A stretch of 38,640 nt of DNA from a virus (taxonomy: Duplodnaviria; Heunggongvirae; Uroviricota; Caudoviricetes), in IMG/VR virus record IMGVR_UViG_2724679239_000008. One strand, written 5' to 3'. A program made the translations under genes and the position numbers. Within the stretch, counting starts at the first letter, position 1, and the number at the start of each line of letters is the position of its first letter. Under the pieces are notes generated by a model, which was given only the letters and a program-made list of their open reading frames with translations, did not search any database and was not told the DNA's origin. This document shows, in pieces, positions 25,807 through 30,301 of this stretch.

Positions 25807-26056
25807 TTCTGTTCTCCCACGTTTTCAGACTTTCACCACAGAACGGGCAAAAACACATTGCAACACCACGACCGATATATTGCCCAGAGTGAATTTGAGC
25901 AATATCTATGCCTGACTCGCCGGTGTTTATGTTCACACGTTCCGGGATAAATATGCCTTTACTCTTGAATGTTGGATTTCCATATTCGAGAGATTTTGCC
26001 AAAGCCGCGCACGGTTCTATCTTGTTGCCATTAACCTGACATTTTGATGCGTTCAC
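25793..26056 (-). CDS. hypothetical protein with C-terminal zinc-ribbon-like CFCPFCG
   Basis: start reassigned to GTG 26056 with AGGAGG upstream and GTGA overlap with upstream stop. Confidence 0.4.
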   Translation of the reverse strand: MNASKCQVNGNKIEPCAALAKSLEYGNPTFKSKGIFIPERVNINTGESGIDIAQIHSGQYIGRGVAMCFCPFCGESLKTWENRNERN

Positions 26057-26469
26057 AGTACCACCTCCTGAAAATTTCCCTGATAGAAATCCAGTACACG
26101 CTGCATAGCTTCGCTCTGACGGCACTCGCGACAAATTATGTTCTGTCGTCTGTTGTAACAGCGTATTTCACCATCCGGCAATGAATAAATCAGCTCGGGG
26201 TCTCTCTTCTTTTTCGCTGTACCTTTCGACATCTCTTTACGGGCCTTTATCCAGTCCTTGCGCGCCTGCTCCGAAGGAAATATCCCGTGCCCCGAACCAT
26301 ATACTATGCCACTGCCCACCAGCTCTTTCGCCAGAACTTCTATCAGGTGTCTCGTTGCTCCGGTTTCATCTTCCAGTTGCTTACGCGTTTTCCTCCCGTC
26401 TCTGCGCACCAGTTCCACAATACGCGCCTTCAGTTGCTCCCGATATTCAGGTGTAAAAACGTTTCTCAT
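26053..26469 (-). CDS. hypothetical winged-helix-like protein
   Basis: start at ATG 26469 (MRNVFTPEY) with GTGAGG upstream. Confidence 0.45.
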   Translation of the reverse strand: MRNVFTPEYREQLKARIVELVRRDGRKTRKQLEDETGATRHLIEVLAKELVGSGIVYGSGHGIFPSEQARKDWIKARKEMSKGTAKKKRDPELIYSLPDGEIRCYNRRQNIICRECRQSEAMQRVLDFYQGNFQEVVL

Positions 26470-26476
26470 AAGCGCC

Positions 26477-27238
26477 TCACTTTTCCAACACAACGCGACT
26501 GGTGGAATCGACAATCTGTCGGACAATATCCCGGTGTTTATTCAGTTCCCGCAGTGCTGCGCAGACGCGCTCCCACTTCTGGACATGATTTTTCGCCCGG
26601 CGCAGTTCGCGGTTTGCCAGATGCAGCGATGGTAAAATCAGGTCATCCACCCGCGTTTCGGTGAACGATGGCAGCGACTGCACAATGTCCGCCACAGTTC
26701 CTGTTTTAATTTCTTCCTGTATTGCAGCTTCCTGTGCTGGTAACGCAACACCTGCTGGCTGAGGAAAGGCTTTACCATCAGTTTCCGTTACCAATGCAGC
26801 TTTCGGCTCTGCTGGTAAATTATCGTCCGGCATGCAGTAACGAAATTTACCGTTCTGATTTACGCGAATCAGGCGACCTTTGCTGATTGCCTGAGCCAAC
26901 GTTGAAGCCACTTTGCGTGATGTGATACCGAACAGCGTAGCCAGCTCATCAGCCGTTTGTGGTCCGCGTTGTTCAATCGTCGCGGTTAAATCGCACTCTG
27001 AGATTTTCGCTACTGTTGCCGTGGTAGTTTCTTCATAAAATTCAGCCCGGGATGCTTGTTCCTGCTGAGCATTGCTACCAGCCACACGCCAGGTGTACGC
27101 GGTTTTATCAACGAAACCAGATTTTTTCAGTTCCCACAGCTCATTCAGTACCTCTTCACGACTGATATCAAGTCGCGCAGCAAGTTCTATGGACGTGGCC
27201 TTTCCCATCGCTTTCAGTGCGTCAAAAACAGTCTCCAT
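26477..27238 (-). CDS. hypothetical early-region protein (ydaW/DUF1627-like)
   Basis: start at ATG 27238 (METVFDALK) with GGGAGG upstream; downstream of DnaC-like gene as in Rac. Confidence 0.45.
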
Positions 27239-27260
27239 TAAAATTTCCTCCCGGTAAAAA

Positions 27261-28007
27261 TCACTTCGTGATTCCTGGCTGGACGACATTCGGGCGCCAG
27301 CTTTCCCAGTTAAAATTCACCCAGCGCCCGCCGTTCATGGTCATGCGATCCATAATCCTCTCGCCGAGCAACGTTTTCATGGCCTCATAGTTCAGGTTTG
27401 TCAGCATCCCCATACTGCGCATCGATGCTGTCCGGCGATCAACAATCTGATGCAGCACCACCTGCTCGTTTTTCGTCTCACGCTGAATGCCAATTTCATC
27501 AAGAACCAGCAGATCCACTTCGCACAGTTCCCGCAAAAATTTTTCGCCTGACTGCCCGTCGTCATAGCTGGCGTGCAGGGCACTCATAACATCAGCCACA
27601 GTAACCACTATCACTGTCTGGCCGTCTTTCAGCAGGCGATTCCCGATAGCCGCCGCCAGATGGTTTTTTCCGGTTCCAGGTTTTCCGCTGAACGCGAAAT
27701 TTGTGCATCCGCTCATCAGTTCATCAGCGATGGATTTCGCCTGACTTAACGCGTATCGCTGGCCGTCGTTCTGTACATGGTAATTCGCAAACGAGCATTT
27801 ACGGTGCAACGGCTGGATGCCAGAGCGATTCAGGATTTTTTCCACCCGCAACTGACGATTCAGGCGGTTGATCTCCTCGCAACGTTTCTGGCCTTCTGCA
27901 AGTTGCCACTCGCGCCACTCCGCCACCGTTCTGAATGGGGCGGTTACATGTGGTGGGGTCATTCTGCGGATACGTTCAAGAACGCCGCCTGCCGCAATAT
28001 TTTTCAT
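27261..28007 (-). CDS. ydaV: DnaC-like helicase loader / replication ATPase
   Basis: Walker [16 protein letters not shown] and Walker B LLVLDEIG; 248 aa; follows replication initiator. Confidence 0.75.
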
Positions 28008-28013
28008 GGTTCG

Positions 28014-28790
28014 TTACCCCCTGAAGCCTGGCGGGATCGCACTGTCCGGCAACGAGACGGTGTTAACCTGCCGAGGCAACGTCTCCGGTCGAACGCCTTT
28101 CGGCGCGAACAAGCCCTGGTATTCGTTGGCGATGCTGTGTCGAATCACCTGCTCAGGGGTAAAACCCTGCTGGCGGAATTTTTCCAGTTCCCGTATCGCC
28201 CCGTTAGCGCCCTGCTCCGTTCGAATCGGTTTTCGCAATGCCTGCCTGAACCGAACCCACTCATGCCAGAGTGTTTCCGGCAACCAATCGGGCAACTCAA
28301 TAGCCTCCGGCTCGAATTTTTTAGATGCTCGTTTTTGGCGAGGGGGATTTAGGGGGAGATCAGTATTTATATCTTCCTCTGGTAACGCTTTTTGATCCGT
28401 TTGTGTAACGCTAGCAGCGTTACCTTTTCGTTTCAGTTCGCGTATTTTTGTAACTCTCTCGTTTGTAACCGCCCGTTTTTTAGAGCTTTTTCCGTTATGA
28501 CGTTCAAAGTTAGGTAGAGAAAGCCCACCGTCATTTTCGACCAGCCATCCAACCTGAATTAACGCATCAGCAAAACCAGCCATAAAAGTGATGCGATCTA
28601 TTGCACTTTTTGTAACGCCACGAGCGTTACAATCTGCGTTACCGTCTATCATTTGTTGATCCGCCCATGCCCAGAAGCGAATAACCTTCCCTAATGCGGC
28701 ATCTGGATCAATATTCAGAATCTCAGCAAGCCTGAATATTTCCGGCTTATCCGGCGTAATAACCTCGAGCTTTATCCAGTTTGAAGCCAT
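28014..28790 (-). CDS. ydaU: replication initiation protein (replisome organizer N-terminal domain type)
   Basis: 258-aa ORF with conserved N-terminal domain, basic middle; iteron-like palindromes inside and just upstream. Confidence 0.6.
   Translation of the reverse strand: MASNWIKLEVITPDKPEIFRLAEILNIDPDAALGKVIRFWAWADQQMIDGNADCNARGVTKSAIDRITFMAGFADALIQVGWLVENDGGLSLPNFERHNGKSSKKRAVTNERVTKIRELKRKGNAASVTQTDQKALPEEDINTDLPLNPPRQKRASKKFEPEAIELPDWLPETLWHEWVRFRQALRKPIRTEQGANGAIRELEKFRQQGFTPEQVIRHSIANEYQGLFAPKGVRPETLPRQVNTVSLPDSAIPPGFRG
28405..28423. repeat. 19-bp palindrome GTAACGCT-AGC-AGCGTTAC (iteron-like)
   Basis: read directly; inside replication gene. Confidence 0.8.
28612..28630. repeat. 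19-bp near-palindrome GTAACGCC-ACG-AGCGTTAC (iteron-like)
   Basis: read directly; additional GCGTTAC half-site at about 28637. Confidence 0.75.
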
Positions 28791-28803
28791 TTGTTTTCAC
28801 CTT

Positions 28804-28822
28804 GTAACGCTCGCAGCGTTAC
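28804..28822. repeat. 19-bp palindrome GTAACGCT-CGC-AGCGTTAC (iteron-like)
   Basis: read directly; 14 nt upstream of replication gene start. Confidence 0.8.
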
Positions 28823-28867
28823 ATTTAACTGATACCGAACAAAACAGTCCGGCACGATTAATTTCAA

Positions 28868-29290
28868 TCAATGCACTACGACAGAGTCGCCGGGCGACCC
28901 ACCACCGCTGAAATGTGCTTTCCGGTAAACGGCCTGGACTGCATCATCATGCGCATCAATTGCCGTACTCAACGCTTCCTGCGCCGCCAGTAATGCACGG
29001 CGTTCCAGGGTATCGAAGATGCAGAGTCGGTGACGCAGCTCGCGCGGAAGAATTGCCAGAATCGCAGGGAGCAGTTTCTGAATTTTTTCCCTTTGCGCTT
29101 TTGTTTCACCTTTCAACCAGCGGTGATAGATGTTCTGCTGATTATTCCAGTCCTTGCCTGGTACCAGGGACAATTCGCCGCCCCCCTGGCGCAGATATTC
29201 TTCAGTAATTGCGTTAGCGACCCACGCCTGCCCTTTTTCGGCTGCCAGGGCTAACAGCACTGATTCGATGTGCTCATGCCTGATTTTCAT
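28868..29290 (-). CDS. ydaT: YdaT-like protein (Rac-type cII-position gene)
   Basis: 140-aa ORF, size and sequence pattern I associate with Rac YdaT; follows cro-like gene. Confidence 0.55.
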   Translation of the reverse strand: MKIRHEHIESVLLALAAEKGQAWVANAITEEYLRQGGGELSLVPGKDWNNQQNIYHRWLKGETKAQREKIQKLLPAILAILPRELRHRLCIFDTLERRALLAAQEALSTAIDAHDDAVQAVYRKAHFSGGGSPGDSVVVH

Positions 29291-29555
29291 GAATCAACTC
29301 CGGTGTATTTTGTGTGTTAGCCTTACATCCTACAGGTAAACCGTCGGTTGGATTCGGGTAGATATCAGGCCGGAGTTCATGAGGTGTAACCTCGAAATTC
29401 GTTACTTCAGCAACACGTAATGCTTTTTCAGGGCTGAATCTTTCATAGCCCCCCAGCACTCGACTTACATGCACCTGAGATAAACCCGTTAGCTTCCCAA
29501 ACTGTAACTGGGTGATATGTTTCTCTTTTAAATAGTCTCTTAAGTTCATAGCCAA
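29274..29555 (-). CDS. ydaS: Cro-like HTH regulator (YdaS-like)
   Basis: HTH QLQFGKLTGLSQVHVSRVLGG; divergent from repressor gene; TAATAT -10 and GAAGGT RBS upstream. Confidence 0.65.
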   Translation of the reverse strand: MAMNLRDYLKEKHITQLQFGKLTGLSQVHVSRVLGGYERFSPEKALRVAEVTNFEVTPHELRPDIYPNPTDGLPVGCKANTQNTPELIHENQA

Positions 29556-29657
29556 CCTTCTACGTTATGCCTCGAGCAAAATATTAGCCCCACTAATTTT
29601 AAAGATCAACAGCCAGACTATCTTTGATAATATTGGTAAAACAAATAAACTCTATGT
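29556..29657. promoter_or_regulatory. immunity-region divergent promoter/operator region
   Basis: 102-bp AT-rich intergenic region between back-to-back repressor and cro-like genes; candidate -35/-10 hexamers on both strands. Confidence 0.45.
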
Positions 29658-30119
29658 ATGAAAAAAACACGCGAAGTGATTGCAACTCCAGAAGCGAGCA
29701 AGAATTTAAAAGCCGCATGGAATGCAAGAAAAAAAGAGCTGAAGCTGACTCAAGAGCTGGCGGCTGAGTTGTTGGGATTCGAATCTCAAGGCACCGTTAG
29801 CCAGTATCTGAACGGCAAGATACCGGTAAATACCGACGCTGCGCTAAAATTTGCGGCTCTGTTAAAGGTAAAACCAGAGGACATTCGAGAAGACCTTAAA
29901 GACTTAATGAATTATGTAAGATCATCAGATACTTATGATGATAGTTTTTCAGGCAAAGGATGGAGACTGGTCAATGAAGAACAGGCAGAGTTACTTAACC
30001 TCTTCGAGATTCTACCTGCGTCAGAAAAAGCCAAACTCCTTAACCAGCTACGTGGACTAAACAAGCTCTACGAGGAAGCCTTCGAGAACATGCTGGCACT
30101 AAAGAAACGTAACCAGTAG
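29658..30119 (+). CDS. racR: prophage repressor, RacR-like (HTH XRE family)
   Basis: 153-aa ORF with HTH LTQELAAELLGFESQGTVSQYLNGK; divergent from cro-like gene. Confidence 0.65.
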   Translation: MKKTREVIATPEASKNLKAAWNARKKELKLTQELAAELLGFESQGTVSQYLNGKIPVNTDAALKFAALLKVKPEDIREDLKDLMNYVRSSDTYDDSFSGKGWRLVNEEQAELLNLFEILPASEKAKLLNQLRGLNKLYEEAFENMLALKKRNQ

Positions 30120-30145
30120 CCACCACTCACTACCCCATCCACAAC

Positions 30146-30175
30146 AAAAAAACCGACGTCTTAGTCGGTTTTTTT
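30146..30175. terminator. bidirectional rho-independent terminator
   Basis: A7 - CCGAC - GTCTTA - GTCGG - T7, symmetric. Confidence 0.6.
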
Positions 30176-30272
30176 GTGCCATAACTTCTGCAAATCAGCT
30201 GTATAACTAATATTTTTCCATTGAAAAAACATTTACATAGTTACTAAATCAAAAATATCATACGCCATGCTG

Positions 30273-30301
30273 TTGACTTAAAATATCCGCGTTACTAATA
30301 T
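30273..30301 (+). promoter_or_regulatory. sigma70-like promoter for the small plus-strand genes
   Basis: TTGACT (30273-30278), 17-nt spacer, TAATAT (30296-30301). Confidence 0.5.

Follow-up and report, generated by a model that had tools for sequence, protein, structure and literature searches.

A 38,640-nt stretch of DNA from a virus of the Caudoviricetes (IMG/VR record IMGVR_UViG_2724679239_000008), which we refer to in its entirety as the window, carries three copies of a 19-bp palindrome, GTAACGC-N5-GCGTTAC, within and immediately upstream of a gene for a replication initiator of 258 aa (28014 to 28790, minus strand). Our comparative data make it likely that the product of that very gene recognizes these palindromes as its cognate sites and that the palindromes, together with an adjacent tract of low stability, constitute the replication origin of the prophage, arranged on the plan of phage lambda. 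A preliminary description of this DNA had read the palindromes as initiator-binding repeats of a candidate origin inside the initiator gene, with dimers as the likely ligands and autoregulation as a possibility. That reading is now supported by selection acting on the DNA, by a two-way link between the motif and the N-terminal domain of the protein, by a change of motif where that domain diverges, and by a conserved tract beside the sites.

The three 19-mers lie exactly where they had been reported, at 28405 to 28423 (GTAACGCTAGCAGCGTTAC), 28612 to 28630 (GTAACGCCACGAGCGTTAC), and 28804 to 28822 (GTAACGCTCGCAGCGTTAC), and the original gene assignment likewise holds, with an open reading frame at 28014 to 28790 on the minus strand, one palindrome in its leader, and two inside it. 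Palindrome O, the leader copy (28804 to 28822; GTAACGC-TCGCA-GCGTTAC), is situated 14 to 32 nt before the initiator ATG (gene-sense −31 to −13), directly 5′ of an AAGGTGA ribosome-binding site. Cluster A (28612 to 28642; gene nt 149 to 179) joins the palindrome at 28612 to 28630 (gene nt 161 to 179) to a half-site at 28636 to 28642, giving three half-sites at 12-bp spacing, and cluster B (28382 to 28423) joins the palindrome at 28405 to 28423 (gene nt 368 to 386) to a lone GTAACGC at 28382 to 28388 (gene nt 403 to 409), 23 bp away. Among the extra half-sites originally proposed, the one at 28382 is thus a full GTAACGC and the one placed at about 28637 is the full GCGTTAC at 28636 to 28642, but those at 28449 to 28453 (GTAACTC) and 28464 to 28468 (GTAACCG), between clusters A and B, are only degenerate GTAAC pentamers. 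The pentamers are not significant alone and are possibly weak, vestigial half-sites; relatives L009, L012, L013, L015, and L018 have a full GCGTTAC ~10 nt from their positions, at gene nt 335.

The palindrome yields 6 strand-matches in the window against 0.04 expected, a number reached in none of 100 shuffles, and the 7-mer half-site GCGTTAC/GTAACGC occurs 14 times against 2.9 expected (4.8-fold), with 8 of the 14 inside 28382 to 28822. The search for the motif elsewhere in the prophage that had been suggested, which we ran over the whole 38.6-kb window at up to 2 mismatches, returned no further copies, and the palindromes therefore do not resemble dispersed palindromes of the REP (repetitive extragenic palindromic) kind, which have many scattered intergenic copies. 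They form the top repeat family of the replication module (26000 to 30300), in which no second iteron-like array or other repeat family was found. The preliminary description had spoken of an iteron-like cluster, and the repeats are indeed real, but they compose no tandem array: the three clusters are 192 bp and 207 bp apart (207 bp between A and B), and each comprises only 2 to 4 half-sites spaced 12 or 23 bp, in a 12-bp register. The layout thus offers the several ~19-bp dyad-symmetric repeats inside the initiator gene that are expected of a lambda-type origin (two intragenic palindromes with half-sites, the third palindrome being in the leader), but not a tandem array of at least four iterons at ~20-bp spacing. 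A terminator-like match on the plus strand at 28405 to 28433, antisense to the initiator gene and composed of palindrome B followed by CTTTTCGTTT, was set aside as a chance occurrence, with 1 found against 1.4 expected.

What is conserved at these sites is the nucleotide sequence, not the peptide. Our comparisons covered about 150 related loci overall. Relatives picked by protein similarity, and thus independently of the motif, included phage records and 27 loci in genomes of Escherichia, Shigella, Yersinia, Serratia, Pantoea, Erwinia, Pectobacterium, and others, together with metagenome-assembled genome (MAG) contigs labelled Pirellulaceae, Novipirellula, Planctomycetota, Ignavibacteriae, Saccharibacteria, and Gallionella; 21 nonredundant sequences were used for the codon analysis. 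The majority of relatives carry GTAACGC-N5-GCGTTAC at gene nt ~149 to 179 and ~338 to 430, and both intragenic palindromes are read as xGT-AAC-GCx-xxx-xGC-GTT-ACx, which yields the peptide [G/C]-N-A-x-x-V-T. Codon entropy falls to zero in cluster A at N55 (AAC in 21/21), S58 (AGC in 17/17, although six Ser codons are possible), and V59 (GTT in 19/19), and in cluster B at N124 (AAC in 18/18) and L136 (TTA in 19/19, again with six codons possible); it is near zero at P137 (CCA in 20/21) and G50 (GGT in 17/19). Other Val, Leu, Gly, Pro, Arg, and Ala columns that are equally conserved as residues have codon entropies of 1.3 to 2.5 bits. Over the first 480 nt of the gene, every third position conserved at 90% or more, barring Met and Trp codons and one Lys codon, falls in a half-site or in the block CAAAAAGCGTTACCAGAGGAA that surrounds the lone half-site.

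The manner in which the sites vary leads to the same conclusion. The residue preceding the Asn may be Gly, Cys, or Ser, and every codon used for it is NGT; the cluster B palindrome occupies another reading frame in L003, L004, and L017, where AAA-GTA-ACG-CTG-GCT-GCG-TTA-C encodes K-V-T-L-A-A-L; and half-sites have been gained at cluster B in exact 12-nt (four-codon) steps, such that L013 and L014 have three direct half-sites followed by an inverted one. It is because of this varied residue, this frame switch, and these 12-nt steps that we identify the DNA sequence as the conserved entity. Half-sites are both gained and lost in 12-nt units among the relatives, and adjacent half-sites are spaced exactly 12 bp apart in 77 pairs and 23 bp apart in 11 pairs. 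The 184 distinct sites contain 105 different 5-nt spacers, in which only the outer positions are biased (T 66%, A 70%), hence the 8-bp arms GTAACGCT/AGCGTTAC of the preliminary description.

The motif is also tied to one domain of the protein. It is kept at the same gene positions in Enterobacterales, in Xanthomonas and Pseudomonas phages, and in the MAG contigs labelled Planctomycetota, Ignavibacteriae, and Saccharibacteria, and it accompanies the N-terminal domain despite differing C-terminal domains after a poly-Glu tract. The downstream gene varies as well, encoding a DnaC-like protein in the window, L022, PAN70, and phiPSA1, DnaB in L023 and Raharianne, and a DUF1064 protein in a Klebsiella phage. 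A scan of viral contigs for the exact palindrome matched at least 120 contigs, and 102 of the 120 listed (85%) encode the N-terminal domain. The palindromes in those 102 lie at gene nt −43 to −31, 140 to 166, or 338 to 437, with two stray copies only; the remaining 18 have no initiator homologue and a single palindrome copy each, as expected of chance matches or contig ends. The possibility, raised at the outset, that the repeats are merely widespread unrelated palindromes fails on these counts and on the lack of other copies in the window.

As the N-terminal domain diverges, the motif changes with it. At both clusters, the planctomycete-labelled loci L024 and L029 have CTAACG[C/G] / GCGTTAG. 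The sites of Ralstonia phage Raharianne (41% identity), at nt 154 and 370, read GTAGACG-N6-CGTCTAC. A GTCCGC type is seen in two further phages, as GTCCGC-N7-GCGGAC at nt 66 and 345 of the Salmonella phage epsilon15 gene and as TGTCCGC-N7-GCGGACA at nt 65 and 365 of the Pseudomonas phage phiPSA1 gene. GTAACGC sites are retained in Xanthomonas phage CP2 and Pseudomonas phage PAN70 (~47 to 48% identity), and a scan of phage vB_EcoS-683R6, whose corresponding domain is of the DUF1376 type, found no GTAACGC palindromes. Because all sites of a genome change together and track one protein domain, we read the motif as the recognition sequence of the N-terminal domain itself, the repeat co-varying with the DNA-binding domain of the initiator as it does in lambda-type origins. 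The contigs labelled Planctomycetota/Pirellulaceae, Ignavibacteriae, and Saccharibacteria (L022, L023, L024, L026, L027, and L029) encode N-terminal domains of 47 to 56% identity and have the same palindrome or one shifted by one base, which suggests either a very wide distribution of these phages or mis-binned contigs.

The initiator belongs to a large family (6925 clusters at 50% identity, E-value of ≤0.001) that has no Pfam model; its window type is present in 687 of 5426 complete E. coli genomes, where it is mostly annotated as "hypothetical protein." Searches of Pfam (E-value of ≤0.01) and NCBIfam families gave no match, including none to Phage_rep_O, while PHROG 2509, "replication initiation protein," matches over the full length (4.6e-85) and PHROG 678, "replication initiation O-like," matches residues 95 to 239 only, that is, the linker and C-terminal domain. 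A profile search of PDB sequences with the initiator found nothing significant, the C terminus being weakly DnaT-like at an E-value of 0.4. We modelled the protein with AlphaFold from an alignment of 29 sequences (mean predicted local distance difference test [pLDDT] score, 67). The N-terminal domain (aa 1 to 97; 28500 to 28790) is modelled with confidence as helices at residues 16 to 25, 29 to 48, 61 to 68, and 73 to 80, followed by a beta hairpin at 84 to 91, and its predicted fold is a winged helix, the only such domain in the model. A linker (aa 98 to 156; 28323 to 28499) that is modelled as disordered and is rich in basic and acidic residues leads to the C-terminal domain (aa 157 to 258; 28014 to 28322), which is helical over residues 157 to 233. 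Cluster A codes for G-N-A-D-C-N-A-R-G-V-T (aa 50 to 60), a low-confidence loop (pLDDT of <50 at residues 52 to 57), and cluster B codes for G-N-A-A-S-V-T...Q-K-A-L-P (aa 123 to 137) in the interdomain linker. Since both intragenic clusters code for loop or linker, the DNA sites appear to be placed where the protein tolerates an imposed sequence.

Immediately 3′ of cluster B lies our candidate DNA-unwinding element, the segment from 28346 to 28385 (gene nt 406 to 445), whose coding strand is purine rich and made up of (GAG/GAA)n. In a nearest-neighbor stability profile computed in 40-bp windows over the interval −150 to +700, this is the least stable 40-bp segment, with a free energy (dG) of −46.9 against a mean of −54.7 (standard deviation [SD], 3.5); GC content is 35 to 45% across 28360 to 28520. 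No comparably unstable tract occurs elsewhere in 26000 to 30300. Of 20 nonredundant relatives, 17 likewise have their least stable window immediately 3′ of cluster B, as do all 7 of the further-diverged genes (CP2, PAN70, Raharianne, epsilon15, phiPSA1, Vibrio phage 1.211.A, and K-12 ydaU), and the deviation reaches 3.5 to 3.9 SD in high-GC phages. A low-stability tract beside the repeats is thus present here, in the position of the AT-rich or easily unwound tract of lambda-type origins.

The window initiator is without 12 nt of the (GAG/GAA)n tract that are kept in close relatives, at 28372 to 28385 (gene nt 406 to 419), so that EED stands in place of EEEEEED and the protein has 258 rather than 262 aa; the loss falls within the candidate unwinding element and resembles repeat slippage. 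Many E. coli and Salmonella initiators (P0012 and related proteins of 374 to 380 aa) have an insertion of ~115 aa (alignment columns ~175 to 305) at the position of that element, immediately behind the poly-Glu tract. The inserted segment contains GRIDIVVTDRNGVRCGIELD, reminiscent of a PD-(D/E)xK nuclease motif, and could be a mobile or homing-type element; the P0012-type variants have no Pfam match. In L005 (Shigella flexneri) and L006 (E. coli ECMA0423), a premature stop leaves an initiator open reading frame of just 633 nt and all three palindromes are intact, which suggests decaying prophages that retain the sites.

From these patterns we infer a scheme for how the initiator would bind its sites as dimers, how the sites would be looped, where the DNA would unwind, how the helicase would be recruited, and how the gene would be autoregulated. 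The N-terminal winged-helix domain would bind each 7- to 8-bp half-site, (T/G)GTAACGC(T), such that every 19-bp palindrome would hold two subunits as a dimer and the flanking half-sites, in their 12-bp register, would hold further subunits. The complexes on cluster A and, 207 bp away, on cluster B, joined by site O where it is present, could then assemble into a higher-order nucleoprotein structure that would destabilize the tract at 28346 to 28385, and the C-terminal domain would recruit the DnaC-like loader encoded next door together with host DnaB. Initiator bound at the leader copy O would most likely limit its own expression.

Several observations weigh against an origin of this kind or against parts of the scheme. 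The sites are dispersed ~200 bp apart with no tandem array, the distance between A and B varies from 189 to 300 bp among relatives, and no conserved helical phase between the two clusters emerges from those distances. A defined looped structure is accordingly speculative, and we dropped the idea of a fixed loop geometry for want of helical phasing. The low-stability tract also codes for a conserved acidic/basic linker (poly-Glu, REEKRRE), and its conservation may be due in part to the protein; in the window its AT-richness is modest (2.2 SD) and 12 nt have been lost relative to Rac 442/2. The relatives share phylogeny, and the counts across loci are therefore not independent events. Finally, the sole sequence-level pointer to oriJ in the accessible literature, a pair of quantitative PCR (qPCR) primers described as framing the K-12 oriJ, maps in ydaV and not in ydaU.

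The last of these points would suit a scenario in which the initiator binds the palindromes solely to regulate its own gene, through a leader operator and intragenic roadblocks or a repression loop, with the true origin at another place, such as the DnaC-like gene or the DNA past it. In iteron plasmids, autorepression classically works through operators that are inverted repeats occupied by initiator dimers, and the leader copy here abuts the ribosome-binding site. We nevertheless regard regulation alone as unlikely: the two intragenic clusters are universal and the leader copy is optional, the region from 26000 to 30300 has neither another repeat array nor another comparably unstable tract, and the layout of cluster plus low-stability tract survives in the subfamilies whose motif has changed. 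The swap with K-12 YdaU, moreover, moves the N-terminal domain and the sites jointly, as an origin-specificity module would move.

The chance that the palindromes instead work as RNA hairpins in the early transcript, acting on mRNA stability, initiator translation, or processing, seems to us very small. Each palindrome can form a stem of 8 to 9 bp capped by a 3-nt loop, folding of the leader RNA is favorable (−29.5 kcal/mol; z = −4.05) with the hairpin just upstream of the Shine-Dalgarno sequence, and the replacement of G by C at arm position 1 of L024 and L029 is symmetric, which a stem could tolerate. Yet unpaired half-sites (28382; gene nt 149 and 403/415/427 in relatives) are as conserved as the palindromes and keep the 12/23-bp register, and the arms are essentially invariant across phyla, without G-U pairs or compensatory drift. 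The rare deviations (GTAACGT, GTAACAC, and AACGTTAC) are one-sided and would break the stem, and an altered motif appears at all sites of a genome simultaneously, which fits one shared reader protein. An Rfam search of the element found no match, and the palindromes display neither membership in a described RNA family nor compensatory stem covariation. It is just as improbable that the sites are read by another protein, such as a host factor, the YdaT/CII-like protein, or the repressor, or that they are recombination joints for module exchange. Cluster B does sit at the mosaic boundary between the N- and C-terminal domains, where conserved DNA could favor recombination, but such a role would be a by-product and can account for neither cluster A nor the co-variation. 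The motif is kept across host phyla and in loci without ydaT, ydaS, or racR homologues, where the upstream genes encode HTH_17 or Roi-like proteins or a methylase or are unannotated; the N-terminal domain is its only constant partner, and no DnaA box (≤1 mismatch) occurs in 28000 to 29000. Sites of host transcription factors of the TyrR, LacI/GalR, and GntR types were rejected because their spacing differs and because of the cross-phylum conservation.

The leader copy is found only in relatives with a noncoding leader (the window, L001, L005, L007 to L011, L014, L015, L018, L020, and L021) and is absent where the upstream gene abuts the initiator gene, and because of this restriction we consider it accessory. 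The leader copies lie 14 to 45 nt before the ATG; L009 and L015 have GTAACGT instead of GTAACGC as the left arm, L018 has four half-sites in its leader, and 15 of the listed palindrome-bearing viral contigs have the leader palindrome at −31/−32. Palindrome O is probably an autoregulatory operator, a role that its position at the ribosome-binding site fits, and it may join the origin complex as a third origin element. The leader between the ydaT- and ydaU-type genes contains no sigma-70-like promoter, for which reason we dropped the notion of a palindrome overlapping a promoter; any control would therefore affect translation or transcription that reads through from the early promoter.

The plan of an origin inside its initiator gene is well known from phage lambda. 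In ori-lambda, O dimers use their N-terminal domain to bind ~19-bp dyad sites within the initiator gene, a tract that melts easily adjoins these sites, and the gene for the helicase loader comes directly afterward; the N-terminal half of O carries the origin specificity, the iterons number four to six in tandem, and the loader is lambda P. The window sites are likewise intragenic, ~19 bp, and dyad symmetric, with a tract adjoining and a loader gene directly downstream. The N-terminal domain of the window initiator, however, is no homologue of lambda O (no Phage_rep_O match), and the window has two to three clusters ~200 bp apart with half-sites in 12-bp register, one cluster within the very sequence that codes for the DNA-binding domain, an optional leader copy, and a DnaC-like loader.

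The Rep proteins of iteron plasmids (RepA of pPS10, RepE of F, and pi of R6K) are also winged-helix proteins, and their dimers bind an inverted repeat near the start of rep for autorepression; the corresponding origins have repeated sites next to an AT-rich tract. Rep proteins have two winged-helix domains, and their monomers bind tandem direct iterons of 17 to 22 bp outside the coding sequence. The window initiator, predicted to share the winged-helix fold, differs from them in the single such domain of its model and in having palindromic, intragenic sites, and it does not fall within the Rep class. Initiator-binding repeats within the initiator's own gene are further known from SPP1 gene 38 (oriL), the rep genes of the lactococcal phages TP901-1 and Tuc2009, and P22 gene 18, the initiator families and repeats of which are not known to be related to those of the window. 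The window palindromes are very probably the core of an intragenic origin of the lambda style, with an uncharacterized winged-helix initiator and an unusual layout that is dispersed and based on half-sites. Extra iterons add residues to O in the origins of lambda and Stx phages, and two iterons with an AT-rich tract are enough for unwinding in lambda-type origins (PMC7466680).

The palindromes are common to Rac-like prophages such as MN652886. The ydaU region of the E. coli K-12 Rac prophage, which the preliminary description took to be orthologous, is not so in the relevant part. K-12 Rac has the same gene order (racR / ydaS-ydaT-ydaU-ydaV-ydaW) and the same loader, and residues 138 to 258 of the window protein align with K-12 YdaU residues 165 to 285 at 82% identity, but these C-terminal 121 residues are all that the two initiators have in common. 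The N-terminal domain of K-12 YdaU is of the DUF1376 family (PF07120; 2.7e-26) and unrelated to that of the window protein, which has no Pfam match. In place of GTAACGC palindromes, of which it has none, K-12 ydaU contains an A(A/G)CAGATGTTCAA array of four to five copies in midgene (L032 2972 to 3063; gene nt 353 to 444), with TGTTCAAACA/TGTTTGAACA inverted copies as well. As in the window, the tract of lowest stability in the gene comes after this midgene array. Since only C-terminal residues are shared, the exchanged unit comprises the N-terminal domain together with its sites, and the junction lies right after cluster B.

At the sequence level, the A(A/G)CAGATGTTCAA array of K-12 ydaU could plausibly be the oriJ iterons. 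The accessible full-text literature contains no sequence-level map of K-12 oriJ. Primers described as "framing oriJ" (PMC3945230, supplementary table) amplify L032 3741 to 3895, inside K-12 ydaV, which is equivalent to ~27596 to 27750 of the window; given this location, we set aside K-12 oriJ as an anchor for the window origin. Part of the forward primer coincides with a 12-mer, TTTCGCCTGACT, of which the ydaV-type gene of the window has two copies (27542 and 27735), and we discounted this pair as a repeat element since it is at chance level, with ~0.5 such pairs estimated in 4.3 kb.

These data provide a concrete assignment of a candidate origin and its initiator sites for a module found in ~1/8 of complete E. 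coli genomes. The motif is nearly diagnostic of the gene, and it could be used both to annotate origins in prophages and phages, including those like epsilon15, CP2, and PAN70, and to predict incompatibility or cross-activation between coresident prophages that share a specificity. The locus is also a clean case of coding sequence shaped by a DNA-binding-site constraint, with frozen synonymous sites, a frame switch, and 12-nt insertions and deletions, and the name "ydaU" in Rac-like prophages emerges as covering two unrelated origin specificities. A bolder scenario, which we put forward tentatively and consider unlikely as a whole, is that this unnamed winged-helix family uses, in place of the compact iteron block of lambda, a split origin in which two to three dimer sites spaced ~200 bp apart are looped together by the protein, with one site falling within the sequence that codes for the DNA-binding domain. 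The leader site would couple autorepression to firing, and the motif would dictate the peptides [G/C/S]-N-A-x-x-V-T and Q-K-A-L-P from enterobacteria to the contigs labelled Planctomycetota and Saccharibacteria. The block of site plus unwinding element at the domain boundary would act as a recombination joint at which origin-specificity modules are swapped, for example, with K-12 Rac.

The immunity and replication module of a Rac-like prophage occupies the region from 26 to 30 kb of the window. Adjoining the initiator gene on its downstream side is the ydaV-type gene for a DnaC-like helicase loader (27261 to 28007, minus strand; NCBIfam PRK12377, 6e-152; DnaC equivalog, 5e-91; Pfam IstB_IS21), followed by a ydaW-like gene (26477 to 27289, minus strand; DUF1627). 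Upstream are a ydaT/CII-like gene (28868 to 29290, minus strand; Pfam YdaT_toxin; phrog_163, CII-like) and a ydaS-like helix-turn-helix gene (29274 to 29555, minus strand; Pfam YdaS_toxin/HTH_3), and a racR-like repressor gene (29658 to 30119, plus strand; Pfam HTH_3) is divergent from the ydaS-ydaT side. Because these ydaT- and ydaS-like genes and the divergent racR-like gene adjoin it, the initiator gene can be placed in an early operon of the rightward type. The stretch from 30144 to 30177, 25 nt past the racR-like stop codon, contains a perfect 14-bp inverted repeat (ACAAAAAAACCGAC / GTCGGTTTTTTTGT) that encloses a 6-nt loop; runs of A and T flank it on both sides, and it looks like a bidirectional intrinsic terminator.

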